From a virus: DNA of 64,000 nucleotides. The notes under the pieces are model-generated. The model did no database searches. It was given only the letters and a program-made list of their open reading frames with translations, and had not been told where the DNA came from. Positions 2,168 to 35,113 of this stretch are shown here, piece by piece. The stretch lies in IMG/VR virus record IMGVR_UViG_3300045988_087221, one strand, 5' to 3'. Both the position numbers and the translations under genes were made by a program. Numbering within the stretch: position 1 is the first letter of the stretch; every line of letters starts with the position of its first letter.

Positions 2168-3228
2168 TACGCTTCCTCCTTTGCTTGTGATTTAATATTA
2201 CTAGCTAATGCACTAACTAAAGCATTTACATTATCTGTAAGTGCATCTACCTTAGCATTAATTTTATCTAATTCCGATGGTTCTGAAGTTTCAGTAGCAG
2301 GTTTGCTTGCTGCACCAAACATATTACCAAACATATTACCACCTCCCATAAGCTGACTCATCATCATCATAGTCATAAAATCAGAACTATTATTATCAGC
2401 GAGAGCCATAAGCATCATAGGATTGAATCCCTTACCTGCATTATTAAATAGTCCACCACCATTCATAGCAGACATCATAAGCAGATTCTTAACATCAAAT
2501 TTATTTCCACTCATATAAGCAAGAGCAAGTGGATTAAATCCATTAGAAGAATCAAAGTTAAATGGATTGACAATAACTCTAAATGTTGCAGAACCCATCA
2601 ACTCATCTTCAATAGCAATCTTATTGTTAATATTGCCATTAAAGTTCATAATCTTGATAGAACCATCTTCTGCTTTAGTCTTAACTACACCATAAGACCT
2701 GCCTGATTTTACAATATCTCCGATTACAATTTGATCAGAGTTCTTGCTAATATTGTAAATACAAGGCATAGGGAAAGTCATCTTATACTTCTTGAGTTTA
2801 CCTGCCGGAGAAACGCCTACGTATGCACCGTCACTATTCTTAAAACAAAGAACACCATCAGTGATACTGATTCTAGCACTCTCCTCAGCCTGTGGCATAA
2901 ACTCATTATACATATCTTTAGTTAAATCTCCAAAGACATTATCAACATTCATTTTTCCAAATTGTTCCATACTTGAAATATTTTTACTTATAGTATTAAT
3001 TTGTTTACCATTAATCTCAGAAATTGTTACCGTCTCATAACTTTCTTGTTCTCTAGAACTTGCATAAGTCCAGACAACTTGAAACTTACTGTCATAACCT
3101 ACAAGTTGTACTAAATCACCTCTTTTAAGCCCAGGACACTCATTAGCTACTATATAAGGTACAGTAGTTTCTGAATTCATTCTAGTAGGACTTAATTTAG
3201 TATTTGTAAATATACCTCTAATTACCAT
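2167..3228 (-). CDS. hypothetical protein with Gly/Met/Asn-rich C-terminal region and coiled-coil tail
   Basis: 353-aa ORF with start/stop overlaps with its neighbours. Low-complexity GGGNMFGNMFG segment. Confidence 0.55.
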   Translation of the reverse strand: MVIRGIFTNTKLSPTRMNSETTVPYIVANECPGLKRGDLVQLVGYDSKFQVVWTYASSREQESYETVTISEINGKQINTISKNISSMEQFGKMNVDNVFGDLTKDMYNEFMPQAEESARISITDGVLCFKNSDGAYVGVSPAGKLKKYKMTFPMPCIYNISKNSDQIVIGDIVKSGRSYGVVKTKAEDGSIKIMNFNGNINNKIAIEDELMGSATFRVIVNPFNFDSSNGFNPLALAYMSGNKFDVKNLLMMSAMNGGGLFNNAGKGFNPMMLMALADNNSSDFMTMMMMSQLMGGGNMFGNMFGAASKPATETSEPSELDKINAKVDALTDNVNALVSALASNIKSQAKEEA

Positions 3229-3230
3229 AA

Positions 3231-3458
3231 TTATAAACTATTAAGTATGCTTTTATATCTATCTAAATATTTAGAACCTAATGCAGACATTATTTTATAA
3301 AATCCTGACCTAAATCCATCATCAGAACTAACTAATTGTTTTATGCTCTTTATATAATAATCAGGTATATCAGATCTACATTCATGTTGCATTAAGTTCC
3401 TAGCTAGTGCCATTTTATTTAATATTTCACCAGCTGCCTTAGCTTTATCTTCAGTCAA
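3231..3458 (-). CDS. hypothetical protein
   Basis: 75-aa ORF in a packed same-strand array. Confidence 0.45.
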   Translation of the reverse strand: MTEDKAKAAGEILNKMALARNLMQHECRSDIPDYYIKSIKQLVSSDDGFRSGFYKIMSALGSKYLDRYKSILNSL

Positions 3459-3668
3459 GTTTAAATATAACTAAATATACTAATAAAAAGACCAAAGCTA
3501 CTCCTAGAATATCTATAAACATTCAAATAGCTCTAATAGATTTAAATGGATAACGTTTCTGATCATAGCTACTAATGAAGTTTTCTTTTACTTTAGCTTC
3601 ATTAATACCTGTAAGTCTAATGGTTTGTTCTTTGTTTTTTAAAGAATCAAAATAAGTTACTTCAAATT

Positions 3669-4076
3669 TCATATAAAAGATTCTCTATTATTAAATTTAT
3701 TTTGAGCATCAAGTACTCCTTCTTTATCTGTAATATCTACAATAAGTCCTATTTGTCGTAACCAAACATCAAATGGACCACTGTACCCTAGGTCACCAAC
3801 CCAACCTCCTTTACAAAATACTATTTTCTTCCAAACAAAAATAGCACATAATATCCCATCAACTTCACATAAATGTTTGCCTTCTGGAATATCTAGGAAT
3901 GTTGGAGCTAAACCTACTCCCTCTCGATAATATTTAGATATTCGAGTATGAAATACATCATCCTGCATAACTACTGCATCTGTCTCATAATTAGTAGACA
4001 ATTTACCATGCAAATAAAAATCAGGCTGATAAATCCAATTCTCGTTTCGACTACTTAATGGCTTAAATTTAATCAT
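3669..4076 (-). CDS. hypothetical protein
   Basis: 135-aa ORF with ATGA-type coupling to flanking small ORFs. Confidence 0.55.
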   Translation of the reverse strand: MIKFKPLSSRNENWIYQPDFYLHGKLSTNYETDAVVMQDDVFHTRISKYYREGVGLAPTFLDIPEGKHLCEVDGILCAIFVWKKIVFCKGGWVGDLGYSGPFDVWLRQIGLIVDITDKEGVLDAQNKFNNRESFI

Positions 4077-4228: not shown

Positions 4229-6688
4229 TTACTTGAATAACTTTTTAGCCCAATACAGGAGTTCTCTACAAACTGGTACAATTGCAGTAAGACCTACAAT
4301 CTCCAACCATGTTTCAATACTTAATGGCTCTGTTCTGAACACATCGCCACCAAATTGAACTATCAAAATTTGACCAATAAATATAACCAAACATATTCCA
4401 ATAAATGCAGGATTACTTAACAAACCATTAAAGATACTTCTGTCTTGTCCAAATACTCTTGCATTAAACAAGTTCCAGAATTGTAACATAACAAAAATAG
4501 TGAAGAACTCTGTAAGGCTATATGTATTACTAATCAGCAAATATAATAATATGCCGAAATACAAAATACCTACACCAAAGATTTCATACCACATTCTCTT
4601 TGTGATAATAAATGCCTTAGGATCACGTGGCTGTTCAGACATTACTGCTTCATTAGCTGGTTCTGTAGCCAATGCTAAAGCAGCAAAAGTATCCATAATT
4701 AAGTTAACCCATAGCATTTGGATAACAGTGAATGGTAAGTCTACCCCAATAAATGGACCTACACAAGCAATACCAATAGCTACAACATTTACAGTAAGCT
4801 GGAAAAGAATAAAGTGCTGAATATTCTTATACAAGCTTCTTCCCCACTTAACTCCTAAGATAACAGAAGGGAATGAATTATCAAGAAGAATAACATCAGC
4901 TGCATTCTTAGCAATATCAGTACCATTATTCATAGCTACACCTACTTCAGCTTGGTTAAGAGCAGCTGAATCATTAGTTCCATCACCAGTTACAGCTACT
5001 ACTTCTCCCATTCTCTGGAATCTCTTAACAAGTGTCTGCTTGTCTTCAGGTTTAGTTCTGGCAAATACATCTACTTTACGTAAATTAGTATCTGTCTGAG
5101 CTTCGACTTCCTTACCAAGCATTGTGTTAGGAGTCTGAGAGATATTAGCTTGAGCAGCGATAGAAGCAGCTGTTTCAGGATTATCACCTGTCACAATCTT
5201 AACTTTAATTCCTGCGTTTCTAGCAGCCTGAATTGCATCAGGTACATTACTTCTTACTGGGTCTTCGATAGCTACGTAGCCATCCCATATGAAGTCTGAG
5301 AGGGTATTTATATCAGAACCAATCTTGTGTGCAAAAGCAATACATCTTCTGCCTTTAGATTGTTGTTCTGCAAAATTAGGTATGTTCTCATTAGAGCAGA
5401 AATTCATTACTATTTCTGGAGCTCCCTTAATATAAGTAACTGCTCCATCACTAGTAATCATATATTTATTCTTAGAATTAAATTCTACTCTACCTGTTAT
5501 ATGAGTTTTATTTCTTTTATCGGTGATGTCAACTGACTTTTGTACATATTGCAGACAAGCACCCTCTGTAGGATTTCCTACTACTTCTCCTGCAGGACTA
5601 AGATTAGCAGTAGAATTAAGTACAATATTATTTATGACAGCATTTCTATCTGTAAAGTCCTGGAATACTACTTTCATTTTATTCTCTGTAAGAGTTCCTG
5701 TCTTATCAGTAAGAATAAGAGTTGTAGCACCGAGAGTTTCACAAGCATGCATCTTTCTAATAAGGTTATTAGCTTTAGCCATTCTCTTCATAGAATAAGC
5801 AAGAGCAAGAGTTACCGCCATAGGTAAACCTTCTGGTACTGCTACTACAATAAGAGCTACTGCAATCATTAAGAATTGTAAGCAATCATTTACAATATCA
5901 ATAGTATCTTTGCCTACATATCCTTGCTCTATAAATATATAACGTATAGCAAGAGACACAATAAGGATACCTGCAGCTGTGAATGCTATCTTATTAATTA
6001 AGCTAGCTAATCCATTAAGCTGTTTATTAAGAGGTGTTTCTACATCAGTAATAGAAGATGCTTCTCTAGCAGTCTTACCTACTTCTGTTTCATCTCCTAC
6101 TGCAAATACTTCACCTACACAAGTACCCTCAGCTACAATAGTGCTTTTATAAATTCTATTTGTAGGATAGGTAGCAGTCTCTGATTCAAAATTAGTTTTA
6201 GTTACAGGATTTGTTTCTCCAGTTAAAGAAGCTTCACTTACCTTCAAATTGCTATATTCTCTAACAATAATATCGGCAGGAACTTCTTCACCAGCTTCAA
6301 GTATTACAATATCCCCTACAACTAAGTCTTTACGAGCTACTTGAATTACTCCATTATCTCGTCTTACCTTAACTAGAGTATCATCACTACTAGTTAAAAG
6401 AAGGTCAAACTTTTTAGCTGCTGACCAGGTATTCCAAAAACCAATACCTACAGCTAAAGCAATGGCTACAATAATACCAATAGGCTCTGTAAATTCACCC
6501 TTTACAAATCCTAAGGCAATAGATACTGCAGCTGCAATAAGTAATATTACAATAAGTGGGTCTTTAAATCCATCAAGTAACATTACATACCAAGCATCTC
6601 TCTTCGGAGGTGTCAATACATTAATGCCATGTCTAGCACGTGAATCTTCTACTTCTGTTAAGCTAAGACCGTAATTTATATCTGTCAT
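4229..6688 (-). CDS. P-type (P2) Ca2+-transporting ATPase
   Basis: DKTGTLT phosphorylation site, TGE, VPEGLP (TM4), TGDGTNDSAAL hinge, NLIMDTFAALALATEP (TM6), cation-ATPase N-terminal motif. 819 aa. Confidence 0.9.
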   Translation of the reverse strand: MTDINYGLSLTEVEDSRARHGINVLTPPKRDAWYVMLLDGFKDPLIVILLIAAAVSIALGFVKGEFTEPIGIIVAIALAVGIGFWNTWSAAKKFDLLLTSSDDTLVKVRRDNGVIQVARKDLVVGDIVILEAGEEVPADIIVREYSNLKVSEASLTGETNPVTKTNFESETATYPTNRIYKSTIVAEGTCVGEVFAVGDETEVGKTAREASSITDVETPLNKQLNGLASLINKIAFTAAGILIVSLAIRYIFIEQGYVGKDTIDIVNDCLQFLMIAVALIVVAVPEGLPMAVTLALAYSMKRMAKANNLIRKMHACETLGATTLILTDKTGTLTENKMKVVFQDFTDRNAVINNIVLNSTANLSPAGEVVGNPTEGACLQYVQKSVDITDKRNKTHITGRVEFNSKNKYMITSDGAVTYIKGAPEIVMNFCSNENIPNFAEQQSKGRRCIAFAHKIGSDINTLSDFIWDGYVAIEDPVRSNVPDAIQAARNAGIKVKIVTGDNPETAASIAAQANISQTPNTMLGKEVEAQTDTNLRKVDVFARTKPEDKQTLVKRFQRMGEVVAVTGDGTNDSAALNQAEVGVAMNNGTDIAKNAADVILLDNSFPSVILGVKWGRSLYKNIQHFILFQLTVNVVAIGIACVGPFIGVDLPFTVIQMLWVNLIMDTFAALALATEPANEAVMSEQPRDPKAFIITKRMWYEIFGVGILYFGILLYLLISNTYSLTEFFTIFVMLQFWNLFNARVFGQDRSIFNGLLSNPAFIGICLVIFIGQILIVQFGGDVFRTEPLSIETWLEIVGLTAIVPVCRELLYWAKKLFK

Positions 6689-6709: not shown

Positions 6710-7336
6710 TTAAAGAAATGAAATTGTTGGACGCTTCATAGCATCAATTGAAGTCCAACCTCCGAACTCACCAACTGCCTTAAAGCGCCATTCACCATCC
6801 TTTTTATAGGCAACACCAAGGATAACTGCCTGCTTATCAGAAATCTTAGTACCTTCCTTACCGTCTTCAAGATTAAACTTAGCTAAGACATTTACAGGAG
6901 TATTAGTGTTTCTCTGTACTCTATCACCTGTATAAATACGAAGACCCATATAAGGAATCTCACCAAATGTCTGGTGTGTAAAGTTATTGAGAGTAAATGC
7001 AATATACTCAACACGTGGGTCAAGCTCATTTAAGCGTACCTCAATAGTCTCATTATCAAGACCATCATTACCATTTGTATCACCCGAACGATCATCACCA
7101 CTATGACGAATACCTGGAGCACTTAAATTGTAATAAGCTACTTCGCCAATACAATTCTTATTAGCATCATACAGAAGAACAGTAGAATCCAAATCTACCT
7201 TCTCGATAGAACCGCCAATGCCAAATAAACCCTTACGTCTGATAGCTCCCCAGTTTGAACCAAAGAATAATTTACTCAAACCATTGTTAGACTCTTTAGA
7301 CAGATTGATTCTGCCACCTTTACTTAAATTAATCAT
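6710..7336 (-). CDS. TerD-domain protein
   Basis: N-terminal INLSKGGRINLSK and Ca-binding GDDRSGDTNGNDGLDNETI motif typical of TerD/TerZ. Confidence 0.85.
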   Translation of the reverse strand: MINLSKGGRINLSKESNNGLSKLFFGSNWGAIRRKGLFGIGGSIEKVDLDSTVLLYDANKNCIGEVAYYNLSAPGIRHSGDDRSGDTNGNDGLDNETIEVRLNELDPRVEYIAFTLNNFTHQTFGEIPYMGLRIYTGDRVQRNTNTPVNVLAKFNLEDGKEGTKISDKQAVILGVAYKKDGEWRFKAVGEFGGWTSIDAMKRPTISFL

Positions 7337-7371
7337 AAAGCTTTATTAAATAATTGTGAATTACTAATTAA

Positions 7372-7405
7372 CTAAAAATGGGAGTACCTAATTAAAGATA
7401 CTCCC
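7372..7405 (-). terminator. hairpin plus U-tract terminator after the upstream TerD gene
   Basis: GGGAGTA/TACTCCC stem (7380-7405) followed on the minus strand by ATTTTT. Confidence 0.5.
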
Positions 7406-7447
7406 TTATAGAATCAAGAATTAAAACCGAATTAATTTATCAATTAA

Positions 7448-8050
7448 TTAAATAGCTGGGGCATCTGGCAAGATGAGTCCATAGTTACGAAGAATATCAC
7501 GATAGATAACATTCTGATAACTACCCTTGTCTTCTCCAAGAGCCTTGAACTTCCAATCACCATTGTGGCGATAAAGTTGGCAGAATACAACACAGCGAGA
7601 CATACTTGCATCCTCAGTAAGATCAAACTTAGCCAAAGGAGTAGTGTTACCTTTAGCATACAAGTTGCAATAAGCATTGTTAACCATACCAAAGTTCTGC
7701 TGACGATTCTTAGCATCGTGAATATTAACTAAGATGATAATTTTCTGGACATCTGCAGGAACCTTAGTAGTGTCTACTACAATTGTCTCATCATCTCCAG
7801 CACCAGCACCTGTACGGTTATCACCTGAATGCTTAATAGCATCTTTCCAATTTGGGTTATTGTAGAAAATGAAACCATTGTCAGGATCTACTGCTTTATC
7901 CTGAGCATTCAAAGGAATAGTAGCTACATCCAAGTCAAATTCTACACCTGCCTGGGATGCTACATCCCAACCCAAACCAATTGAAAACTCTGTTACACCA
8001 TTTGCTTCTTTAGCGAGGTTGATGTTACCTCCTTTACTTAATTGAATCAT
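7448..8050 (-). CDS. TerD-domain protein (paralog)
   Basis: IQLSKGGNINLAK and GDNRTGAGAGDDETIVVD TerD signature. Confidence 0.85.
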   Translation of the reverse strand: MIQLSKGGNINLAKEANGVTEFSIGLGWDVASQAGVEFDLDVATIPLNAQDKAVDPDNGFIFYNNPNWKDAIKHSGDNRTGAGAGDDETIVVDTTKVPADVQKIIILVNIHDAKNRQQNFGMVNNAYCNLYAKGNTTPLAKFDLTEDASMSRCVVFCQLYRHNGDWKFKALGEDKGSYQNVIYRDILRNYGLILPDAPAI

Positions 8051-8064: not shown

Positions 8065-8256
8065 TTAATATTTACCGCAAAATTTACGGCTAATTATAGT
8101 CATAACTTTATCATAAGTTAACTTTTTAGCTTCCTTCTCAGAATAACCTTCTATAATATAAGAATCTACTATTTTCTCAATTGCAGCATTCATTTCAGAG
8201 AATAAGTATTTTTGTTCTTTAGTTAACTTATCATCATATAAATAAGATTTATTCAT
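8065..8256 (-). CDS. hypothetical protein
   Basis: 63-aa ORF that overlaps the upstream gene end. Confidence 0.45.
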   Translation of the reverse strand: MNKSYLYDDKLTKEQKYLFSEMNAAIEKIVDSYIIEGYSEKEAKKLTYDKVMTIISRKFCGKY

Positions 8257-8515
8257 CTACTTGTAAATCAGCCTGAGTACTTTCTATATAATCTTTTACA
8301 TCTAAGTCTGTAATAAGATTAACTAAGTCTCCAACAGTCTTTAGATTCTGAACTTTATCATCTGTGATAGGATAACCAAACTCCTGTTCACACTCAGTAA
8401 TAATCTCTACTAAATCAAGACTGTCTGCATACAAATCATCGAAAGTATCTTCACTCTTGGCATCTACACCTAGTTCTTCATTAATTATATTAATGACCCT
8501 TGTTTCTATACTCAT
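8249..8515 (-). CDS. acyl carrier protein-like
   Basis: 88 aa, acidic. LYADSLDLVEIITECEQEFG matches the ACP DSLD phosphopantetheine-serine helix II motif. Confidence 0.7.
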   Translation of the reverse strand: MSIETRVINIINEELGVDAKSEDTFDDLYADSLDLVEIITECEQEFGYPITDDKVQNLKTVGDLVNLITDLDVKDYIESTQADLQVDE

Positions 8516-8913: not shown

Positions 8914-9489
8914 TTAAATTAATAAACGTTTATTTAAAATTACTGGTGTACCCTTTGATTCCTTAGTTGGACCTGGTGCAGGGAGTGCTTGAGACTCTTC
9001 ACCCTTAGGCTTATAATGTTCTTGTATATATGTACTGAAGGGCTTTGAATCAAGTAACGTTGGAATATGCCAATCAAAAAGCTCATAATGGATAGCTACT
9101 TCATTATCTACCTTATAAGTATCTGTACGAGCTAGAACCTTTTTAAGATCCATTTTATTTTCCTTAGGCTCATCAAATATGTAAGCTATTGAATTTTCAT
9201 CTGGCACTAATCCTATGACAAATAGAAAATTATATCCTTTGTTACATAGAGATGGAACGCCAAATAAACCTACACAATAAGCATTTAGATATGACATGTT
9301 CTTTTCACACGCTTTATAAAAAGGCCCCTTGTTATAATCAGGTTTCTCCTTCATTATATATACTGTCTTACTATCTTCAGGACGTATTAAATAGTATTTA
9401 GCATCAGGAATAGAGTCTTTGGAATTATTTCCAAAAAAACCCACTTCTGTCGAGGGAATACAACCCTTTACTACCTCATCTTCATTCAT
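8914..9489 (-). CDS. hypothetical protein
   Basis: 191-aa ORF. Confidence 0.5.
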   Translation of the reverse strand: MNEDEVVKGCIPSTEVGFFGNNSKDSIPDAKYYLIRPEDSKTVYIMKEKPDYNKGPFYKACEKNMSYLNAYCVGLFGVPSLCNKGYNFLFVIGLVPDENSIAYIFDEPKENKMDLKKVLARTDTYKVDNEVAIHYELFDWHIPTLLDSKPFSTYIQEHYKPKGEESQALPAPGPTKESKGTPVILNKRLLI

Positions 9490-11326: not shown

Positions 11327-12475
11327 TTAATATATCTGATTAAGCTTACCTGAAGCACTTGAAGTGTATCCAGATTTAATTATATAAATATTAAAATTAC
11401 ATAAACTGGTTACAACGTAACGCTTTTGAGGGTCTATGTAGAATATAGTACGATCGTCAAACTCTTCTCCTATTTTGAGATACTTTATCTCCTTATTAGA
11501 TATAATAGTATCTGTGCGCATATAAGTGCCCTCCAGGACTTTCTTAGCTTCCAATTCTCTCTCAGAATATTCTTTAATAGGCTTTCCTGCAGCTTGGCAC
11601 ACTATTTCTCGACTTTCGACTATCTTATCAAAGAGTTGTCCATCAATATGAGGACTATTCCTTAATAATCCATCTCTTAATTCTAGAGATTCTACAAAAT
11701 AGGTAAAATTAGAGAACTCAAGATTAAAGTCTCTACGGATTGCCTCAATTTTGTCTTTACCATGAATATTAACTTCCTGAGCAAGAGCTTTTACTAGATC
11801 AACAGTAATTATCTGCATCTGTCTAATTAAGTCTAGTACTGGCTCTATTGCATCTTTGTCAATTAAAATATCATTAAGTAATTCAAGTGTAGTTTCTTCA
11901 GGTAGATTACCAAAAGAACGTACATATCTAATACGTGATGGGCGACCTAACAAATTATTATTAATTTCCAACTCATTAGTGGTAAGTAGAAATATTTTAC
12001 GATATTGTGAATTGTGAACACCGTCCATAAAAGAGAGAACTGATGAAGATTCCCTAAATTCTTTTTCGTATTCATCAAAGAAGAAGATACAGTCAAAGTT
12101 AATTTGAGTAGCTAAGAATTTAAGCATATCATTTACTTCTTTACAGGATTTAACAATAATAACTGGAAGTCCGATACGATTACAAAGCTCTTCTGCAGTA
12201 ACTGTTTTACCTGTTCCCTTGATACCATTAAATAATACTCCTAAATTACCTGTAGTATTATTGTAAGTTTTTACAAAATGATCAATAAACTCACTATTAA
12301 TACCATACAATTTGTAATTAAATACAAAAGAATCTCCAAGTCTATTTAAATAATAACCTGTCATTGATTCTTTAACTTCATAAATTCCTTTAGGCAATCC
12401 TTCAGGATGTGCTTTTGTTGTGGCACTACCCTTCACAAAAGTATTACCATCTTGAATCCAAATGTTTTGTTCCAT
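11327..12475 (-). CDS. AAA+ ATPase
   Basis: Walker A GIKGTGKT, Walker B IFFFDEYE, sensor-1-like LLTTNE. Confidence 0.75.
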   Translation of the reverse strand: MEQNIWIQDGNTFVKGSATTKAHPEGLPKGIYEVKESMTGYYLNRLGDSFVFNYKLYGINSEFIDHFVKTYNNTTGNLGVLFNGIKGTGKTVTAEELCNRIGLPVIIVKSCKEVNDMLKFLATQINFDCIFFFDEYEKEFRESSSVLSFMDGVHNSQYRKIFLLTTNELEINNNLLGRPSRIRYVRSFGNLPEETTLELLNDILIDKDAIEPVLDLIRQMQIITVDLVKALAQEVNIHGKDKIEAIRRDFNLEFSNFTYFVESLELRDGLLRNSPHIDGQLFDKIVESREIVCQAAGKPIKEYSERELEAKKVLEGTYMRTDTIISNKEIKYLKIGEEFDDRTIFYIDPQKRYVVTSLCNFNIYIIKSGYTSSASGKLNQIY

Positions 12476-12493: not shown

Positions 12494-12886
12494 TTATAAT
12501 CTCATATCAGAGTTTAACTCTAAACCAAATAGAAAATGTTGAAGTTGATGGACATATCTAATCTTTTTGAAGCGATGCTTAGTCTTACCACGACAAAGTT
12601 CCCATACAGAAGGATAATCTTTATTTGGTTTAATGAAGTAATATACACCATCAAATCTTGCTCTCCACCATGTATATCTCTTAGACTTTAACCTTTTCCA
12701 TTTGTTTTTGTCTAATATTTCTGGGGTAAGGGGGATTGGAACTATATCAGTACACTCAATATCTACATCATTATAATTTGCATCTAGAGCTTCATAGTAA
12801 TATTTACCACTGCTCATAATTGTATAATTATTGCAAAACTTTGGTATATAAACTAAATCTCCAGGAATATATTGAATTCGTTCCAT
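12494..12886 (-). CDS. hypothetical protein, paralog of 21902-22273
   Basis: Shares ..PGD.V....PLTPEILDKN.W......VHQLQHFLFGLELN with the other copy. Confidence 0.55.
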   Translation of the reverse strand: MERIQYIPGDLVYIPKFCNNYTIMSSGKYYYEALDANYNDVDIECTDIVPIPLTPEILDKNKWKRLKSKRYTWWRARFDGVYYFIKPNKDYPSVWELCRGKTKHRFKKIRYVHQLQHFLFGLELNSDMRL

Positions 12887-13777: not shown

Positions 13778-14011
13778 TTATTTAATTGTTTCACCTACTC
13801 TGTAATCATCCCCATCGCACACACGAATAGTTTTAATCTCATATCGATTAGTTTTCTTATTATACATTCGTATTTTGAAAGCATAATACTCTAAGCATAT
13901 TGTTTTTGATATTATTACCCCTCCCTTATAATTCAATATAGAATCCTTACATTGAATTGAAGGACCACACGATACCAATAAAGATAAAATTACTAATACT
14001 ATTACTTTCAT
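13778..14011 (-). CDS. small lipoprotein (hypothetical)
   Basis: Signal peptide with lipobox LLVSC. Confidence 0.55.
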   Translation of the reverse strand: MKVIVLVILSLLVSCGPSIQCKDSILNYKGGVIISKTICLEYYAFKIRMYNKKTNRYEIKTIRVCDGDDYRVGETIK

Positions 14012-14097
14012 AATAATTTAAATACAAAAATCCCTGAACTATATAGGTAGCCCAGGGATTAAAATAACGTTAAATAATAAAAACAGTTCTATGAACC

Positions 14098-14433
14098 GGT
14101 GGAGCATTGGAGAGTCGAACTCCAGTCACTCCGATTTGCATCAAAACATTCTTACAGCATAGGTTTTAAAGACTATCCTTGTCTGCTAGGGTTGACAAGA
14201 TTAACATATTGTCAACTTCCACCACTCTGTTCCTAAAGTATACAGAGAACTTACAAAAGAAATGGAAAATAGTGCACCTTTCTGTTCCTAAGCAAGTGCT
14301 GCTCGGCTTCTCAGGCTGCGATAGCGTAAGAAGCGGAAGTGTTATTTACTTCGCCAATTAATTTTTTACTTGTCTATCCAAGTTGTCTTGCTGTGTTCCT
14401 TATCTCCTCGAAGTTCAAAACCACGAATGCCCC
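14098..14433 (-). ncRNA. ssrA: tmRNA (complete, phage-encoded)
   Basis: The 5' GGGGCAT pairs with the 3' ATGCTCC-A-CC, giving G3:U70. T-arm GGAGTTCGACTCTCC. Internal tag frame 14311-14355 reads GGC GAA GTA AAT AAC ACT TCC GCT TCT TAC GCT ATC GCA GCC TGA = GEVNNTSASYAIAA*. Confidence 0.85.
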
Positions 14434-14752
14434 ATTTAAAAGAGTCCTAATAGAACTCTTTAATATCTTCTGATTCTTCTACTATATGGAGAACCCATAT
14501 CATACCAATCATCTGGATCTATTCTATCTTCGTCACCCATAATCTAAAAATTAATTAATGTTAAAAACTATATGTTAATCTGTTTCTTTTCGGAATCATC
14601 TTCTAAATAATATAATTCTGTTTATTATACGGAAAGCCCTTTTAACTGCAGGTATTTTGGAATCATCTGGATGTAAATGATAATTCCTAATAACTACATT
14701 AGCCTCATGTAGTTTCTTGATTTCTCTTAAACTATACATAAATATGACTTTA

Positions 14753-15358
14753 TTATTCTTTATTAATCATACATTGTCTTAATATAGTTTCATTAATTAT
14801 ATTATCATTTTCTCTTGCGAGTTTATCTAACAACTCTAGATTAAATTCTTCCTTTTGAAACTTAAATTGAATCCAATTAGGTTCAAATTCTCTGTAATCT
14901 AGATGAGACAAAGGTTTATCTGTATTTAATACATATTTAACTAATCTAGTTAAACGTTCTCCAGCTAGTTTAGATACTACAAAACCAGATAAATCATAAC
15001 CTATACCTCTACTTCTCCAATATTCACCTATTTCAGGCTTAGAGTCTGGAGCAACATAGAACATTTTATAATAGTCTGAAGAACCTAAAGTTACATAAGT
15101 ACCTAACTGACCACTACATATAGATAATCCTACATAGGAATATAAAGTATCATTATGATCTAGTGTAAGAAATACTGGGACTTTATCAGGATCCAAATTA
15201 TTAATCTCACAATGATGCAGTGCAGTATGCACATACTCAAGTAATTTAGATACTGATATAGTACTTAGTTTGGTATCTTCTTCACCTTTGTTCTCTTTAA
15301 TGGCAGCATCAGAACATCTAGTGTGCCAATTTTTCCATTTATCTCCTTCTAAATACAT
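14753..15358 (-). CDS. hypothetical protein
   Basis: 201-aa ORF. Confidence 0.55.
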   Translation of the reverse strand: MYLEGDKWKNWHTRCSDAAIKENKGEEDTKLSTISVSKLLEYVHTALHHCEINNLDPDKVPVFLTLDHNDTLYSYVGLSICSGQLGTYVTLGSSDYYKMFYVAPDSKPEIGEYWRSRGIGYDLSGFVVSKLAGERLTRLVKYVLNTDKPLSHLDYREFEPNWIQFKFQKEEFNLELLDKLARENDNIINETILRQCMINKE

Positions 15359-19313: not shown

Positions 19314-19358
19314 ATTTCCTCTTTCTACCCTCTCCCTTTCTCAGGAGAGGGTAATTTG

Positions 19359-19691
19359 CTAATCTGTTACAACTTCCCAATCTTCTGCAAACACATCGCT
19401 AGAAGAAGGAACCCATGAATCTGCTCTACCATCGAGATTGATAATTAACATTTGATTGGTATAGTCAATGTGAGGATTGTCACGAGACATCAAGATGTCC
19501 TTAGCAGATTGAGGAAGCGATTGCATCTTAGGAATGATATCACCTTCAATGTGTGAAGGAACCTGCTTAACGATAAACAATCCTTTACCATTCCAACCGC
19601 TACGACGGCAAGCTTTACCCTCTTTCAAAAACTGAATGGCATTTCCAAAATCAAAATGCCTATTTGCTAAATACTCATTATTTTCTGTCAT
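19359..19691 (-). CDS. DUF2829-like protein (Tad2-type candidate anti-Thoeris sponge)
   Basis: FDFGNAIQFLKEGKACRRSGWNGKGLFIV matches the DUF2829 N-terminal signature (..A...LK.GK...R.GWNGKG.F.). 110 aa. Ends in TAG. Confidence 0.6.
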   Translation of the reverse strand: MTENNEYLANRHFDFGNAIQFLKEGKACRRSGWNGKGLFIVKQVPSHIEGDIIPKMQSLPQSAKDILMSRDNPHIDYTNQMLIINLDGRADSWVPSSSDVFAEDWEVVTD

Positions 19692-21710: not shown

Positions 21711-21905
21711 CTAATATCTATTTATGTTCAAAGTGTTAAACATCAGACATATTAAACTTAAAGAGGATACTGACATAATGACTACTCCGAATATGAAAAG
21801 AGGAACACCTACAACAGCAAACCATATACTCTTAGTCATTTCCATCCCGGAATAAGACATAATATAACCAAAAAGTATTGCTATTATTAACAATACTATA
21901 TTCAT
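21711..21905 (-). CDS. small two-TM membrane protein (hypothetical)
   Basis: 64 aa with two hydrophobic helices. Ends in TAG. Confidence 0.5.
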   Translation of the reverse strand: MNIVLLIIAILFGYIMSYSGMEMTKSIWFAVVGVPLFIFGVVIMSVSSLSLICLMFNTLNINRY

Positions 21906-22273
21906 ACTTCTATCTCATGATTAAGATTTAGACCAAAGAGAAGATGCTGTAGTTCATGAATATATTGTATGATGTTTAAACACTCACTATTATATACAAT
22001 TCTTAGAGTGTCTTTTCTAATTATAATAACTATAAATTTACTTATACTTTTCTTTCTATAATAAAGCTGTGTTTTAAAAGAAGCTTCTTCATCTTTTTCC
22101 CATCCATTCTTCTCTAGAATCTCTGGAGTAACAGGAACACCTGATAATTCTAATTGGTGTACTGGATGTTCTACATAAGATAGCTCATAATTATTTACCC
22201 CAAGCGTATCCATAATTGTATGTATTTTATTATCATACATAACAATATCACCTTTGATATATTCTTGCTCCAT
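21902..22273 (-). CDS. hypothetical protein, paralog of 12494-12886
   Basis: Shared VPVTPEILEKNGW and IHELQHLLFGLNLN motifs. Confidence 0.55.
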   Translation of the reverse strand: MEQEYIKGDIVMYDNKIHTIMDTLGVNNYELSYVEHPVHQLELSGVPVTPEILEKNGWEKDEEASFKTQLYYRKKSISKFIVIIIRKDTLRIVYNSECLNIIQYIHELQHLLFGLNLNHEIEV

Positions 22274-24518: not shown

Positions 24519-25141
24519 TTTTTATAAATGGCATCAAGAATATCTTTAAAATTAGGATTATCTATTACATATTGTGCATCAGCTTCATTTTTAAATACTG
24601 GATTACCATAATATACATCAGAAGTTGGATTAATAATATTAACTTTATAATAAGGTTTTTTTATACTCCTATCATAAGCTATCATATAGCCGCGTTCACC
24701 GCTATTAACTTTATATTTCCAATCACCATTAAAATATTTAGCAATATCCATAAGATTACTTATTGCAATTATTTTCTTACGAGTTGACGTACTTACAGTA
24801 ATAGATGAATTAAGATATTCACACGCAACAATTTCTGCTATTGTTATCCATTTACTCCTAAATTTGATAATACCCTTAGCTAAATCACTATTTTCCAAGT
24901 CTATCTCCATTCCTTCAGGAATATCAATAGTTAATTGATTATTCTTTATTTCCATATCTTTTATTTCTTTAAATATTACACTAGTGTTATCCGATCTGCT
25001 ATTAGGTATACAATTACCCACAGATGGTCCAATAAGACCACATAGTTTACCATTAAATGCACAATGTGTACATAAAATAGATTTTACTACTTGATAGGTT
25101 TTACCATCATAAGTAAATACTTCACCTATTTTTCTTTCCAT
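24515..25141 (-). CDS. hypothetical protein
   Basis: 208-aa ORF with a Cys-rich N-terminus. Confidence 0.55.
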   Translation of the reverse strand: MERKIGEVFTYDGKTYQVVKSILCTHCAFNGKLCGLIGPSVGNCIPNSRSDNTSVIFKEIKDMEIKNNQLTIDIPEGMEIDLENSDLAKGIIKFRSKWITIAEIVACEYLNSSITVSTSTRKKIIAISNLMDIAKYFNGDWKYKVNSGERGYMIAYDRSIKKPYYKVNIINPTSDVYYGNPVFKNEADAQYVIDNPNFKDILDAIYKN

Positions 25142-25569
25142 AATTTTCTTGTATCATATTTTTTATCTGGCTGTACTTTTATATAGTTACCAGTATATAT
25201 AAGCCTATTTGATACTACTTCACCATTACTATTTAAACAATACAGAGTACCTGCAGGAATAAGAAATTCTCCTAAAAATATTGAATACTCTAATAGAGAT
25301 AAAGTATACCGAAGATTTTTTTGAGTATATAAATCTACAGCAGCTGGATATAGTGGATATAATATACAGTTAAGATAACTATGTAATCCATATTCTATTG
25401 AATCTGCAAATATAATTGGTTCAACTACTAATTGATTTGCAGGATAGTCAAAATTACTATAGAAAAATGGTTTAAAAGTACCCTTATCAGCATAAGTACC
25501 TATCTTATATACTTTAATACCTCTTTTAGCTACTAGTACCTTACTTTCTTTAGTCATATAAAAACACAT
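25126..25569 (-). CDS. MC(W/F)-N-terminus paralog family protein, copy 1
   Basis: Starts MCF. Shared motifs: (K/R)..VYKIG, G(L/Y)HSY, F(L/I)IP.G..Y, GE.VS..IIYTG. Confidence 0.65.
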   Translation of the reverse strand: MCFYMTKESKVLVAKRGIKVYKIGTYADKGTFKPFFYSNFDYPANQLVVEPIIFADSIEYGLHSYLNCILYPLYPAAVDLYTQKNLRYTLSLLEYSIFLGEFLIPAGTLYCLNSNGEVVSNRLIYTGNYIKVQPDKKYDTRKLWKEK

Positions 25570-25579
25570 AAGCTCGATA

Positions 25580-26041
25580 TTAAATTGAATTAAAAGATTC
25601 TTTCAAATTAGTATCAAAAACTCTCCATACACTAGAATATTGTCCTGTATAGATTATCTGATTAGATACAATTTCATTATCTTCATTAACGCAATAAATT
25701 GCTCCTTTAGGTACTATAAATTTACCTAAATATAGAGTCTCGTTAATTGTTGGATAGATACTAATTGTAGGTCTATCTTTAGTATTTTTTTGTATAACAA
25801 CAGATACTGGAGTAATAATAGTAATGGTTAAAGCTATATTTATATATCCATGAAATCCCTCATTTATATGAGATATATTGAAATTTGGATCAGTTGTATT
25901 TTTAATACCTGCTATATAAGAGAATTTAGTTATAAAGTAGGGTGTGAAGATAGCTTTATTAGCCTCCACACCTATTTTATAAACCACTATATCTCTTTTT
26001 GCTCTTAACACTTTACTTTGTTTCGATTTCCAAAAACACAT
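25580..26041 (-). CDS. MC(W/F)-N-terminus paralog family protein, copy 2
   Basis: Starts MCFW and carries the same motif set (EGFHGY, FIVPKGAIY, EIVSNQIIYTG). Confidence 0.65.
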   Translation of the reverse strand: MCFWKSKQSKVLRAKRDIVVYKIGVEANKAIFTPYFITKFSYIAGIKNTTDPNFNISHINEGFHGYINIALTITIITPVSVVIQKNTKDRPTISIYPTINETLYLGKFIVPKGAIYCVNEDNEIVSNQIIYTGQYSSVWRVFDTNLKESFNSI

Positions 26042-27053: not shown

Positions 27054-27437
27054 TTATTCTTCCAATAAACCTAAATATTTAATATCAGTACTAACTACTT
27101 CTCTGCGTTTATAGTTGACATAGATAGTAGCACCCGCTGGAATTTCAAATATTCCTATTTCATCATATTCGTCCCTACTGCACTTAGCCATCTCTTCAGT
27201 TAAGTATGAATGATAACCTTCATGTATATAAAAATTATCGTAACTCCAAAGTTCATCTCGAGGTCCAAATACAAATTCAGGATCTATCTTTACTGTAGGT
27301 ACAGTCTGAGATTCACGGTACCTAAAATCTCGGTATAAACTTATAAAGCCACCGAAAATCGATGATGTACCTACTTTATAAACTATTAAAGGTTTCTTCA
27401 ATACCAATGGAATTGCAATAGTATTTGTCCAACACAT
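27054..27437 (-). CDS. MC(W/F)-N-terminus paralog family protein, copy 3
   Basis: Starts MCW, with HEGYHSY, FEIPAGATIY and EVVSTDIKYLG. Confidence 0.65.
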   Translation of the reverse strand: MCWTNTIAIPLVLKKPLIVYKVGTSSIFGGFISLYRDFRYRESQTVPTVKIDPEFVFGPRDELWSYDNFYIHEGYHSYLTEEMAKCSRDEYDEIGIFEIPAGATIYVNYKRREVVSTDIKYLGLLEE

Positions 27438-27511
27438 AACCTAATTTAAAATTATTAAAAAAGAGTCCAGCTAATTAAATAGTCAGACTCTAAATAATTA
27501 ATTATATTTTG

Positions 27512-27697
27512 TTACTCAGGATAGAATTTAGATTTATCTACCACATGAGCATCAGTATCGTCAATAGATTCAACTTCAATTAAATCACCTGGAGTAACTC
27601 CCCAGCGATTTTTAATTGCAACTACTGCAGCTACCTGCTTAGTAGGACATCCTGTAATGTAATAAGGAATACCCTTACATTTAAATATTTTTGCCAT
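27512..27697 (-). CDS. hypothetical protein
   Basis: 61-aa ORF. Confidence 0.45.
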   Translation of the reverse strand: MAKIFKCKGIPYYITGCPTKQVAAVVAIKNRWGVTPGDLIEVESIDDTDAHVVDKSKFYPE

Positions 27698-27699
27698 TT

Positions 27700-28032
27700 T
27701 TAATAAATAGTATTAAAACCATATTTAAGAAATAAACCAAATGGAGTAAGATAATCATCTTCTCTAAAAGTTCTGTTCCTAGCTAAACAGATAACTCTCT
27801 GAAATGTTAAATTATCTCTTTTTAAATGCCATAACTTATTAAACTTATCCTTAGTTAATTTATAGTGACCTTCATTTTCTATCCATTTACGAGGCTCATC
27901 ACAAGCATCAACTTGTACAGGATAAGTCAATACCATATCTCCATTAAGTACATCAAATTCAATATATTCACAATCGTCTGGGATTTTAACTAATTTACCC
28001 TTACCATTGTAATCATATATACGTATAATCAT
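27700..28032 (-). CDS. hypothetical protein
   Basis: 110-aa ORF. Confidence 0.5.
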   Translation of the reverse strand: MIIRIYDYNGKGKLVKIPDDCEYIEFDVLNGDMVLTYPVQVDACDEPRKWIENEGHYKLTKDKFNKLWHLKRDNLTFQRVICLARNRTFREDDYLTPFGLFLKYGFNTIY

Positions 28033-28247
28033 TATTTAAATAATTCTATAATTGGATAATAAATAATTGTATTATACTCAGCTATATTTAGTGTCCAAGC
28101 TGTAGCCCAAATCATGGCAAAGACTCCTAGTCCTACAGCGAAATACCCTGCTTTATATATAGTTCGAGTTTCATTTAATAATTGCGCTCTAAGTATTATA
28201 TATAATACAATTGTAACTATTCCTAACAATACCTCAAGTATAATCAT
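28032..28247 (-). CDS. small two-TM membrane protein (hypothetical)
   Basis: 71 aa, hydrophobic. Confidence 0.5.
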   Translation of the reverse strand: MIILEVLLGIVTIVLYIILRAQLLNETRTIYKAGYFAVGLGVFAMIWATAWTLNIAEYNTIIYYPIIELFK

Positions 28248-28474
28248 TTGTATGTATTTGCATCTAAATCAATAGCAGACATACCTGTTCTATATTCGCT
28301 ATAGATAACTATCTTATGAGGTCTTTTCTTAGAATCATACATTATTTCTAATGTTTTATACTCATAAGCTGGTGCTTTAGAGCCACTTCTAGTAGGATAA
28401 TTGTAACTATTAACTAAAGTAACGGTCAATAGTAATCCTATAATTAATAATACTTTTTTCATAATTTTAAACAT
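28244..28474 (-). CDS. small secreted protein (hypothetical)
   Basis: 76 aa with an N-terminal signal peptide. Confidence 0.5.
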   Translation of the reverse strand: MFKIMKKVLLIIGLLLTVTLVNSYNYPTRSGSKAPAYEYKTLEIMYDSKKRPHKIVIYSEYRTGMSAIDLDANTYK

Positions 28475-28896
28475 TTACCAGTATAAATGATTTTATCAGA
28501 TACAACTTCACCTTGGGCATTTATAATATATGTAGCACCTTTAGGGATTATAAAAGTTGCTATATAACCCTCATTTTCAAAAGGAACAGATATCCGTCGC
28601 TTTCCAACTAACATACCCTTAGACCTAATTGCCCTGTTATAAAAAGAAGAGTTACATATAAAATGTATCCCAGTATAACTATGATATGCTTTTTTTATGT
28701 TAACTACCTTATACTTAAAGCCAAGTACCTCATACTCTATAGTAGGTATATAATATGGAGTATTTACTGTATAATCAAAGCCCATAATAATAGACTTACA
28801 AGATTGCTTATTAGCATCGGATACTACCTTATAAACCTTAAAATCTCTATCAGCAATTTGAACATTTATCTTATCTTTAATTTCCGTCCAACACAT
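28459..28896 (-). CDS. MC(W/F)-N-terminus paralog family protein, copy 4
   Basis: Starts MCW, with KAYHSY, FIIPKGATY and EVVSDKIIYTG. Confidence 0.65.
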   Translation of the reverse strand: MCWTEIKDKINVQIADRDFKVYKVVSDANKQSCKSIIMGFDYTVNTPYYIPTIEYEVLGFKYKVVNIKKAYHSYTGIHFICNSSFYNRAIRSKGMLVGKRRISVPFENEGYIATFIIPKGATYIINAQGEVVSDKIIYTGKCLKL

Positions 28897-28900
28897 AGTC

Positions 28901-29314
28901 TTATAGTTTTAAATGGTTACCTGTGTAAATAATATTAGAAGAAACTATTTCTCCTCCATCATTCTCATAATACTCAGAACCTTTAGGTACAATGAATGTT
29001 GCAATAGAATAAATATTATATAATTTAATATCTTTCGCAATCTTACCTAAATAAATCGTTCTATAAAATGAGCGTAAATCAGAGTAAGGCATAGCTATAT
29101 CTTTATAAGAATGATACCCTTCATAAATTACATAAGAGGACTCATCTTTAAAGAATTTAATAGGGTTTAGTTCAACTTTTTTATTTATTTCTTTTGGTTC
29201 ATAAATAAAGTTTTGATATAAACTTTTAAAACCTTTATCAGATACACGACCTAATTTATAAACGTAAAAATCTCGTTTAGCTATTTTTACATCACATCTA
29301 CCTATCCAGCACAT
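28901..29314 (-). CDS. MC(W/F)-N-terminus paralog family protein, copy 5
   Basis: Starts MCW, with YEGYHSY, FIVPKGSEY and EIVSSNIIYTG. Confidence 0.65.
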   Translation of the reverse strand: MCWIGRCDVKIAKRDFYVYKLGRVSDKGFKSLYQNFIYEPKEINKKVELNPIKFFKDESSYVIYEGYHSYKDIAMPYSDLRSFYRTIYLGKIAKDIKLYNIYSIATFIVPKGSEYYENDGGEIVSSNIIYTGNHLKL

Positions 29315-29316
29315 AA

Positions 29317-29754
29317 TTATTTGCTAAAATTACTTATTCTTAAATATTTGCCTGTATAAATAATCTCAGAAGATACTATATGTCCATACTTATTTTCAAA
29401 GTATTCAGCACCCTTTGGAACTATAAACGTAGCTATACAACAGAACTTATATCCTTCTAAAGATTCTTCCAAATCCTTGATATAATTACCTAGACATAAA
29501 CATCTAGTTGGATAAGAGTTGTCATCTATAGCTACCCATTTATAAGAATGGTAACCTTTATCTATCGTATAAACACCTATACAAGGACTATAAGTTACTA
29601 AAGGGACTATTCTATTAAGACATTTAGGAGCATAGTTATACCCCCTAATATCACTAATAAAAATATTATTCCATACAATCTTCCCTATTTTATAGACATA
29701 GAAATCTCTTTCAGCTATCTTTTTAATAGCTGTATCATCGCCTGTCCAACACAT
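29317..29754 (-). CDS. MC(W/F)-N-terminus paralog family protein, copy 6
   Basis: Starts MCW, with DKGYHSY, FIVPKGAEY and HIVSSEIIYTG. Confidence 0.65.
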   Translation of the reverse strand: MCWTGDDTAIKKIAERDFYVYKIGKIVWNNIFISDIRGYNYAPKCLNRIVPLVTYSPCIGVYTIDKGYHSYKWVAIDDNSYPTRCLCLGNYIKDLEESLEGYKFCCIATFIVPKGAEYFENKYGHIVSSEIIYTGKYLRISNFSK

Positions 29755-30605: not shown

Positions 30606-30637
30606 CTAAAATGTAATAATATGATAAAAGAAATAAG

Positions 30638-30711
30638 TCCGTGTTGAGGGACTTGAACCCCCGACCACTTAGGTATAAGCTGAGCACTCTAACCAACTGA
30701 GTTAAACACGG
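30638..30711 (-). tRNA. tRNA-Ile (anticodon TAT)
   Basis: Cloverleaf: acceptor CCGTGTT/AACACGG, D ACTC..GAGT, anticodon loop CTTATAC, T GGGGG-TTCAAGT-CCCTC. One C-A mismatch in the anticodon stem. Confidence 0.8.
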
Positions 30712-30954
30712 ATTAAAAAGTGCCTAAGGGTCGCTACTTCCTCTCCTCCCTAATTGCTAGCAGGGTATGCACTTGCCACTAAGACACTTAGCGCTTTAGG
30801 CTTTTTAAGGAGCCTTAACTTATTAAAGTTCTCACATATATTCATAACCAAAAACAGATAAATAATTCCATTTTCACAAACAGAACTTTTACCGAAAACT
30901 TAGAAAATTTTCAAACTTATGAGTATAAAACATCGAATATGAATAATAATAGAG

Positions 30955-31027
30955 TAAATACGGACAGACTCGAACTGCCAACCTCCGGATTAGTGTCCGT
31001 TGCTCTATCCAATTGAGCTACGCATTC
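30955..31027 (-). tRNA. tRNA-like gene with a 6-nt anticodon loop CACTAA (contains CTA); identity undetermined or pseudo
   Basis: Good acceptor (GAATGCG/CGTATTT), D arm (GCTC..GAGC) and T arm (GGCAG-TTCGAGT-CTGTC). The anticodon stem CGGA/TCCG encloses only 6 nt. Confidence 0.5.
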
Positions 31028-31186
31028 CACTACGAATCTCACGTAGATGCTATTCTAGTATACACAATAGCTAATTCTAGTTAGTTGATTATGTGCCACC
31101 ACATACTGCCATACTATTCAGTCAGACAGCCTATTCCAGGGATTAAGCATCTGGACATGCTTTTATACTAGTATTGCTATATAGCC

Positions 31187-31750: not shown

Positions 31751-31775
31751 ATCTAATTAAAATTTCCAATTTTGT

Positions 31776-32921: not shown

Positions 32922-33006
32922 AAATATTAATATTTAAGTTATTATTTTTAATTGATTAATCACTTATTTAGTATATATCTAGAACATAGAAATTACTAAT
33001 TAATTA

Positions 33007-33040
33007 AAACTCATACTACTTTCACAAGCAATATGAGTTT
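33007..33040 (-). repeat. conserved-loop hairpin R6
   Basis: 9-bp stem aaactcata/tatgagttt. Loop (minus sense) TTGCTTGTGAAAGTAG matches the family consensus. Confidence 0.6.
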
Positions 33041-34451: not shown

Positions 34452-34464
34452 ATTATTTATTTAA

Positions 34465-35111: not shown

Positions 35112-35113
35112 AT

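Follow-up and report, generated by a model that had tools for sequence, protein, structure and literature searches.

Phages are already known to encode transfer-messenger RNAs (tmRNAs): pipelines built on ARAGORN (ARAGORN/Pharokka) report them routinely (PMC9805569, PMC12291355), and the tmRNA database of the Williams laboratory also covers viral genomes (PMC11915505). The gene described here is a well-supported new example. It is located on the minus strand, at positions 14098-14433, of a stretch of viral DNA of 64,000 nucleotides (IMG/VR record IMGVR_UViG_3300045988_087221), which was analysed as a whole and is referred to as the window. From the letters alone, the original prediction had claimed a complete phage tmRNA with its own tag at this place, and both searches proposed there were run and agree with it. 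ARAGORN called a complete one-piece tmRNA of 336 nt, with the tag GEVNNTSASYAIAA and its stop in the coding part (gene positions 79-123). Rfam cmscan returned a match to RF00023 at 14097-14433 on the minus strand, which covers model positions 1-374 of 374 and is not truncated; with 51.0 bits it lies above the gathering score of 47, the curated threshold for the standard one-piece form (E = 3.7e-17 for the window and 4.3e-19 in a local search). The nhmmer profile of the phage family scores the same gene at 353 bits. Its G+C content is 42%, compared with about 31% for the genome, and its minimum-free-energy z-score of -2.0 is modest by itself, as is expected of a pseudoknotted RNA. The tiny E-value of the covariance model, together with helices kept by compensatory changes in 31 distinct homologues, places the tmRNA well beyond chance.

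These 31 distinct sequences come from 39 contigs, namely the window and 38 other phage contigs of about 94-225 kb, mostly from the human gut. Pairs were counted in a global MAFFT alignment, with the acceptor stem taken from the raw sequence ends; as a control, the 3' partner was moved by one or two columns, which left 0-75% pairing. All seven pairs of the acceptor stem are canonical in every sequence and the G3:U70 pair, the mark of alanine identity, is present in 31/31, with pairs 5-7 occurring as C-G/A-U/U-A, C-G/U-A/A-U, A-U/U-A/G-C, or G-C/U-A/A-U. The stem leads into a 3' ACC(A) end; since a G follows in the DNA, the last A is not part of the gene and a CCA-adding enzyme would need to supply it. 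The 5-bp T stem is canonical in 155/155 cells, shows compensatory changes in four of its five pairs and closes a 7-nt loop of the TΨC type; the D-loop analogue of the window tmRNA, TCGTGGTTTTGA, carries GG, and an anticodon arm is absent. The tRNA-Ala-like acceptor with G3:U70, the TΨC arm and the internal tag frame were all found at the coordinates of the original prediction, which had named no strand; they lie on the minus strand. Helix 2, which joins the tRNA-like domain to the ring of pseudoknots and message, is present as well: helix 2a is canonical in 217/217 cells, with five of its seven pairs compensatory and shifted controls at 26-55%, and helices 2b, 2c, and 2d are canonical at 84-99%, with compensatory pairs 38-288, 42-278, 43-277, and 48-262.

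Helix 5, in which 97% of the cells are canonical, has three compensatory pairs, such as C101-G127 to U-A. Each of the pseudoknots PK2, PK3, and PK4 can be drawn as an H-type pseudoknot. Stem 1 of PK2 is 97% canonical, with two compensatory pairs (both in the relative L039), and stem 1 of PK4 is canonical in 209/210 cells, again with two compensatory pairs; stem 2 of PK2 shows no variation in the counted alignment and reads AUACU/AGUAU in L060 by hand alignment. At the PK1 position, the variants with tags 2 and 3 have G-C in place of the pair C52-G65, as seen by eye in the alignment. A hand search of the window sequence and of a tag-2-type variant did not find the second stem of PK1, and the GAKAGA loop is without a conserved partner. 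A pairing of GAUAG/CUAUC with the tag region was considered as this stem; it exists in the window, is not conserved and was rejected. The original prediction had named rejection by a covariance model or missing pseudoknot pairings as grounds for giving it up. The covariance model accepts the RNA and the pairings of PK2 to PK4 can be drawn, but PK1 is seen only as a hairpin; in every testable respect other than a demonstrable PK1 pseudoknot, the window gene has the standard form. The structure of the RNA is under selection in this phage family.

The message is also under selection. The tag of the window is 14 amino acids long, begins at a resume codon, ends in a hydrophobic-Ala-Ala degron and is closed by UGA within the hairpin of helix 5. 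At least six tag variants exist in the family (Table 1), all with intact frames, with the stop within helix 5 and with an end in YAIAA, YAVAA, AYQAAA, AVAIAA, or FRIAA. A hydrophobic-Ala-Ala C-terminus belongs to the class that marks tmRNA-tagged proteins for proteolysis. Since all variants keep such an end, the tag is best understood as one for ordinary degradation, which argues both against a pure decoy and against the retargeting of tagging that had been suggested originally and that is not supported.

The loci were compared by anchoring them on the gene of an AAA ATPase (11327-12475), 2 kb downstream of the tmRNA, which returned 38 loci. With the family profile, the tmRNA was found upstream of the ATPase at the same place in 32/38 of them, and no tmRNA was found at the syntenic position in L040, L051-L054, and L058. 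Among the IMG/VR contigs, 21 with lengths of 94-225 kb contain a 20-mer of the pseudoknot region. L047, a contig of 165,451 bp with a 96% identical ATPase and the same tag, is most closely related to the window, and the only phage relative in GenBank is MT835492.1 (L001; 121.6 kb), from human faeces. Because G3:U70 is invariant, the helices are kept by compensation and a degron is found in every tag, we regard the product of this gene as a selected, functional RNA.

Within the family, parts of the gene have been exchanged. The tRNA-like domain appears in at least four combinations of acceptor stem, helix 2a, and T arm, joined to different tags (alignment of the window with L001-L060), and the core from PK2 to PK4 is 95-100% identical despite this shuffling. 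In each helix, the two strands match without exception although 300 nt separate them; it is this matching across shuffled modules that speaks most strongly for the RNA being in use. The exchange of tRNA-like and tag modules between phages points to frequent recombination within the tmRNA gene. In 14/39 contigs (MT835492.1 at L001:4017-4349, L006, L008, L011-L018, L020, L022, and L033), the T arm reads GACGG-GGCAGUA-CCGUC and the D-loop analogue is without GG; acceptor stem, G3:U70, helix 2a, and an intact tag are all kept in this variant. These copies received no ARAGORN call and no RF00023 match even at E<=1. About one third of the family copies therefore escape both tools, and surveys built on them undercount phage tmRNAs, so that the family exposes a blind spot of current tmRNA finders.

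In three relatives (L034, L005, and L060), the T loop is interrupted between its bases 2 and 3 (UU / CGA) by a group I intron (RF00028, 86-96 bits). The intron of L034 measures about 860 nt, with the 3' exon restarting at 6644. The T loop of the window is uninterrupted and Rfam gave no RF00028 match within the window, so that its gene is not of the intron form. This intron position (subsite 3) has been reported only from the class Bacteroidia (PMC11915505). A related intron, sharing an exact 20-mer, sits at the same site in the tmRNA gene of a Hymenobacteraceae metagenome-assembled genome (MAG; L064:2929-3524), whose tag is GEYTYAMAA. On the strand opposite to the tmRNA, the phage introns hold a conserved open reading frame (ORF) of 209 aa in L034 (5944-6573, minus) and 187 aa in L060 (3025-3588, minus), with a Cys-rich N-terminus and the motif LDRIDSSKGYIKGNVQFV, which looks HNH-like by eye. 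The identification as an HNH endonuclease was not upheld, as it goes back to this likeness only and Pfam gave a sub-threshold zinc-finger match. The intron 20-mer also occurs in L065 (CAMJOB010000004.1), L067 (CAMJMP010000002.1), L066 (CAZEMQ010000001.1), and L068 (CACZFV010000011.1), which are binned into MAGs of Firmicutes, Tenericutes, Muribaculaceae, and Lachnospiraceae. L065 and L067 show a partial tmRNA match of the L060 type, L065 in addition an array of 10 tRNAs, and both have the look of phage sequences that were wrongly assigned to bacterial MAGs. In the related contig L010, about 9 kb away from the tmRNA, there is another group I intron (9010-9294; RF00028, 88 bits).

The location of all these elements is given in Table 1. 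As originally described, the gene is flanked by genes on the same strand; the two neighbouring ORFs gave no match to a Pfam or PHROGs family. The terminator scan found two sites where 0.5 were expected, and relatives of types A, B, and D keep the hairpins behind the tmRNA. The conserved hairpin in front of the gene may either terminate the unit before it or belong to the tmRNA precursor. Just before this hairpin ends a possible ORF of 26 codons, MGDEDRIDPDDWYDMGSPYSRRIRRY plus stop (14466-14546, minus), which was read by eye. A scan for promoters of the sigma-70 type upstream gave 12 matches against 8.2 ± 2.8 in shuffled sequence and hence no excess, a result that tells nothing either way, since promoters are of other types in crAss-like phages and Bacteroidota.

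Table 1. Location of the parts of the tmRNA gene, of its variants and of further features. Positions refer to the window unless a contig is named; nt, position within the tmRNA gene.
Feature	Position	Strand	Sequence or description	Basis
Acceptor stem, 5' strand (nt 1-7)	14427-14433	minus	GGGGCAT; pairs with 14101-14107	
Helix 2a, 5' strand (nt 20-26)	14408-14414	minus	ACTTCGA; pairs with TCGGAGT (nt 300-306) at 14128-14134	
Hairpin at PK1 position (nt 51-55 / 62-66)	14368-14383	minus	A-rich single strand AAAAAAUUAAUU lies between it and the resume codon	Rfam alignment
Tag frame	14311-14355	minus	GEVNNTSASYAIAA plus stop; resume codon GGC to UGA stop	ARAGORN, coding part 79-123
Helix 5 hairpin (nt 100-105 / 123-128)	14306-14334	minus	contains the last part of the tag frame with its stop codon	pair counts
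PK2	14274-14304	minus	stem 1, nt 130-134 / 140-144; stem 2, nt 135-139 / 156-160	pair counts
PK3 and PK4	14175-14247	minus	PK3, nt 187-192 / 204-209 and 195-199 / 215-219; PK4, nt 218-224 / 237-243 and 233-237 / 255-259	
T arm (nt 310-326)	14108-14124	minus	TGGAG / TTCGACT / CTCCA	Rfam alignment, posterior probability marked by an asterisk
Acceptor stem, 3' strand (nt 327-333)	14098-14107	minus	ATGCTCC, then discriminator A and CC	sequence
Hairpins with T runs, like intrinsic terminators	14098-14084 and 14060-14029	minus	directly 3' of the tmRNA	terminator scan
Conserved upstream hairpin	14439-14461	minus	AAAGAGTTC...GGACTCTTT; 5 bases upstream of the mature 5' end	sequence and alignment
Flanking ORFs	13778-14011 and 14753-15358	minus	same strand as the tmRNA	
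Tag	window and many other contigs		GEVNNTSASYAIAA	
Tag	relatives		GEVNNTSVSYAIAA	
Tag	L039		GRVNNSSVSYAVAA	
Tag	relatives		ARVINMTPVSYAIAA	
Tag	relatives		ARVINMTPAYQAAA	
Tag	L005		ARVINMTPATAVAIAA	
Tag	L060		(N)GNNTVTFRIAA	
Acceptor stem versions			GGGGCAU/AUGCUCC, GGGGCUA/UAGCUCC, GGGGAUG/CAUCUCC, GGGGGUA/UACCUCC	
Helix 2a versions			ACUUCGA/UCGGAGU, UUGUCUA/UAGGCAA, UUGUAUA/UAUGCAA, UUGCGUA/UAUGUAA	
T-loop intron	L034:5784-6643		group I intron	RF00028
T-loop intron	L005:397-648	minus	group I intron	RF00028
T-loop intron	L060:~2790-3673		group I intron	RF00028
Amber-suppressor tRNA	43959-44031	plus	anticodon CTA, Gln-like	ARAGORN; Rfam tRNA, 63 bits
Late/structural block	45152-63999	plus, except two ORFs at 45152-48432	TAG as sense codon	ORF comparison
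Large terminase (TerL)	53006-55366		PHROG 6681	
Portal	55558-57729		PHROG 6547	

The tmRNA gene is part of a block of early or middle genes on the minus strand, together with a tRNA array (30637-36783) and many accessory genes. The tRNA set is large, with 12 calls by ARAGORN and 15 by Rfam. Within the array, one ARAGORN tRNA shows an 'anticodon' of two bases (ct; 30954-31027), two Rfam tRNAs are of unusual length (33240-33344 with 105 nt, and 35754-35839 with 86 nt, called by ARAGORN at 35752-35821), and an extra tRNA was seen by Rfam only (35269-35340). Some of these odd members may contain introns or be degenerate.

Short ORFs on the plus strand start at about 43.5 kb. According to the comparison of ORFs under alternative codes, the long plus-strand ORFs past about 50 kb and two minus-strand ORFs at 45152-48432 are open only if TAG is a sense codon, and 14 late ORFs contain 192 in-frame TAG codons. 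Together with the Gln-like tRNA with the anticodon CTA, this bears out the earlier description of the genome as TAG-recoded. The suppressor tRNA shares U1 and the D arm with the tRNA-Gln(TTG) of the window, which means that TAG is most likely read as glutamine. Among the early ORFs, 11/65 are terminated by TAG; the median distance to a backup stop behind them is 6 codons, compared with about 16 by a rough estimate for A+T-rich sequence, from which we draw no claim. In the tRNA array of one relative, a tRNA with the anticodon TTA, i.e., an ochre suppressor, was seen (L008:7491-7576, minus), so that the clade may use more than one kind of suppressor.

All named relatives of the large terminase are terminases of Crassvirales (phages of Bacteroides, Flavobacterium, and Azobacteroides) with 25-28% identity. 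This makes the phage distantly crAss-like and a host among the Bacteroidota likely. A link to this phylum had been suggested from the tag; it is made plausible by the crAss-like TerL, the T-loop intron subsite of the Bacteroidia type in relatives and the intron of the Hymenobacteraceae, the latter two of which support the connection from the side of the tmRNA gene. The phage is a lytic-type, distantly crAss-like gut phage, probably of 165-190 kb.

A Pfam scan of the window ORFs of at least 85 aa revealed no SmpB, release factor, or integrase. With E. coli SmpB as the single query, by which a very divergent SmpB could be missed, a tblastn search of the window and of all of MT835492.1 gave no match at E<=10. 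The same query matches 68 other phage records from several phyla, 15 Prevotella phages among them. As no SmpB was detected, the tmRNA most likely relies on SmpB, alanyl-tRNA synthetase (AlaRS), EF-Tu, RNase P, and the CCA-adding enzyme of the host.

Several other elements of the window are listed here in their own right. A RAGATH-1 hammerhead ribozyme at 41581-41667 (minus) matches its full model with 80.8 bits at a gathering score of 56.3. A cluster of accessory genes, all on the minus strand (226-1587, 4229-6688, 6710-8050, and 8249-8515), encodes an adenylosuccinate synthetase, a P-type cation-transporting ATPase of 819 aa, two TerD-domain proteins, and an acyl-carrier-like protein. Also on the minus strand are genes for a protein with a domain like Tad2 (Thoeris anti-defence 2; 19341-19691, E = 2.5e-17) and, in the early block, for a YkuD-type L,D-transpeptidase domain protein with a lipoprotein-like N-terminus (31187-31750) and a protein with a LytTR DNA-binding domain (34092-34451). 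Six small paralogous ORFs of 127-161 aa (25084-26041 and 27054-29754, minus) begin with MCW or MCF and share the motifs ...VYK(I/V)G..., ...HSY..., and ...VVS..IIYTG..., with no Pfam family. Another pair of paralogues (12494-12886 and 21902-22273, both minus; 130 and 123 aa) has in common ...Y(I/P)GD(L/I)V... at the N-terminus and ...H(Q/E)LQH(F/L)LFGL(E/N)LN... at the C-terminus.

Taking these findings together, we consider it very likely that the gene encodes a genuine and functional tmRNA of the standard one-piece form that uses host partners. It would be transcribed from the early or middle block of the minus strand, with transcription ending at its own terminators, and host tRNA enzymes would process the transcript and complete its CCA end. 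Host AlaRS would then charge it with alanine by means of G3:U70, and host SmpB and EF-Tu would bring it to ribosomes with an empty A site. Translation would restart on the internal frame, the nascent chain would gain (A)GEVNNTSASYAIAA, and its hydrophobic-Ala-Ala end would lead to proteolysis of the ClpXP type, with the ribosome being freed at UGA. The phage would gain extra or guaranteed ribosome rescue and protein quality control during infection. The most attractive specific reason would be that the phage installs amber suppression: ribosomes would be pushed through the UAG stops of host genes and of 11/65 early phage genes, and, when the suppressor tRNA runs short, ribosomes could idle at the 192 in-frame UAGs of the late genes. 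With TAG-ending genes in the host and the early region and so many TAG codons in the late ORFs, extra capacity for rescue and clean-up would be useful.

Some points weigh against this reading or against its link to recoding. The Rfam score exceeds the threshold by a margin of 4 bits, and the PK1 position holds a 5-bp hairpin only, with no demonstrated pseudoknot. The stems of PK3 and stem 2 of PK2 are nearly invariant and unproven by covariation; as they barely vary, these pairings are neither supported nor contradicted. An SmpB gene could lie elsewhere, as the window covers only a section of the genome and MT835492.1, too, probably falls short of a complete one. As to recoding, six related loci are without a tmRNA at this place, and one of them, L058, nonetheless carries a suppressor tRNA with the anticodon CTA. 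No description of a tmRNA in crAss-like or related TAG-recoded gut phages was found in the open-access literature, including the searched papers on recoded and zeta crAss-like phages, and to our knowledge most recoded crAss-like phages have not been reported with a tmRNA. Finally, the co-occurrence of tmRNA and recoding in one clade is a single evolutionary observation and circumstantial.

The latter points bear above all on a stronger claim, namely that the tmRNA is a dedicated part of the code switch, which clears ribosomes stalled at UAG or after read-through and destroys truncated structural proteins that could poison assembly. Its attraction lies in the heavy TAG recoding next to a Gln-like suppressor tRNA and in the early ORFs ending in TAG. 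In addition, nonsense-suppressor tRNAs lead to read-through to the ends of messages and thereby raise the load on trans-translation, according to Ueda et al. (2002) as cited in PMC3985003, and in E. coli without UAG reading, tmRNA acts at the unassigned UAG and decides the growth of UAG-containing phages, which it limits (PMC6207430). By analogy, a role in dealing with suppression-induced read-through and truncated late proteins is plausible. However, besides the suppressor-carrying L058 and the single clade, tmRNAs are also present in huge phages that have not been described as recoded (PMC7162821). Why a phage should need its own copy is not obvious, given how abundant and stable the host tmRNA usually is. 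Some mycobacteriophages carry tmRNAs too, which likewise counts against a tie to recoding. On balance, we hold a dedicated function in the code switch to be possible and rather doubtful. That the tmRNA is an integral and co-evolving part of the code switch, expressed together with the tRNA set, and that, at the same time, the non-canonical T-loop variant has a tRNA-like domain adjusted so as to evade some host factor or to match a partner specific to the phage, appears unlikely.

Another explanation would be that the phage copy makes up for host tmRNA lost through depletion following host shut-off or damaged by a defence nuclease of the host, the diverse modules being the trace of an arms race. 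A similar stand-in role has been proposed for phage tRNA arrays, and here the gene does accompany a large tRNA set. The at least four combinations of the tRNA-like domain on a pseudoknot core that is 95-100% identical would fit such a history, as would the GGCAGTA T loop with its changed D-loop analogue in 14/39 contigs. Recombination together with neutral compensatory drift could equally account for this diversity, as could co-conversion around the T-loop intron, and we know of no defence system that targets tmRNA. We thus view a replacement of host tmRNA as improbable, less so though than an RNA that inhibits host trans-translation. In the latter case, the phage RNA would compete as a decoy for SmpB or ribosomes and blunt the tagging of phage proteins. 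A precedent is the tmRNA-like RNA of phage DS6A, which inhibits endogenous tmRNA in E. coli as cited in PMC11915505, and a benefit is conceivable, since host tmRNA can restrict phages with UAG-carrying genes (PMC6207430). A pure decoy would have no need of the tag frame, degron, stop, and helix 5, which are all conserved here, the helix by compensation, and this makes the decoy very improbable. A non-functional passenger, i.e., an attachment-site remnant or a decaying captured host tmRNA, can practically be dismissed, as the original prediction had already done for the remnant, for even though tmRNA genes are common integration sites and phages can carry 3' fragments of them (PMC11915505), this gene is full length with both halves, is syntenic in 32/38 loci, is rich in compensatory substitutions with the tag frame intact in every copy, and has no integrase near it in the Pfam scan of the window.

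Phage tmRNAs have been catalogued, and their purpose has never been tested. For this question, the clade offers an unusually clean setting: a lytic-type phage of an abundant, crAss-related lineage of the human gut imposes TAG-to-Gln recoding on a host with the standard code, carries a tmRNA with apparently no SmpB, and provides natural "swap experiments" in its tRNA-like domains and tags. If the RNA turned out to be needed after the code switch, ribosome rescue would be mechanistically tied to viral stop-codon reassignment.

Compared with the standard bacterial tmRNA (RF00023, Bacteroidota type), the window gene shares the G3:U70 acceptor, a T loop of the TTCGA type, a stemless D-loop analogue, a helix 2 that is long and irregular, an A-rich single-stranded stretch ahead of the resume codon, the hydrophobic-Ala-Ala end of the tag, the stop in helix 5, and three H-type pseudoknots that can be drawn behind the tag. 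Its tag begins with GE, like that of the Hymenobacteraceae MAG. Tags of Bacteroides and Prevotella are GETNYALAA and GENNYALAA. In contrast to the standard form, the gene belongs to a phage, and SmpB was found neither beside it nor elsewhere in the window. The gene is also short (336 nt), has a longer tag (14 aa) ending in IAA and a small PK1 hairpin, and scores 51 bits versus the threshold of 47.

The tmRNAs of huge phages or megaphages (Al-Shayeb et al. 2020, PMC7162821) are likewise accompanied by many tRNAs and translation genes, and their function was inferred. Huge phages have also been reported with SmpB (PMC7162821), of which none was found in the window or MT835492.1 for this clade, and the clade is distantly crAss-like by its TerL, unlike those carriers. 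With the intron-form tmRNA genes described in PMC11915505, the relatives L034, L005, and L060 share subsite 3, whereas the gene of the window is intron-free. The phage T-loop introns reach about 860 nt compared with a maximum of 700 nt in that description, and the ORF on the opposite strand is conserved. Finally, the RNA of mycobacteriophage DS6A is also a phage-encoded mimic of the tRNA-like domain of tmRNA. As cited in PMC11915505, it is tag-less and a reported inhibitor of host tmRNA, while the RNA of the window keeps both its tag frame and its degron.

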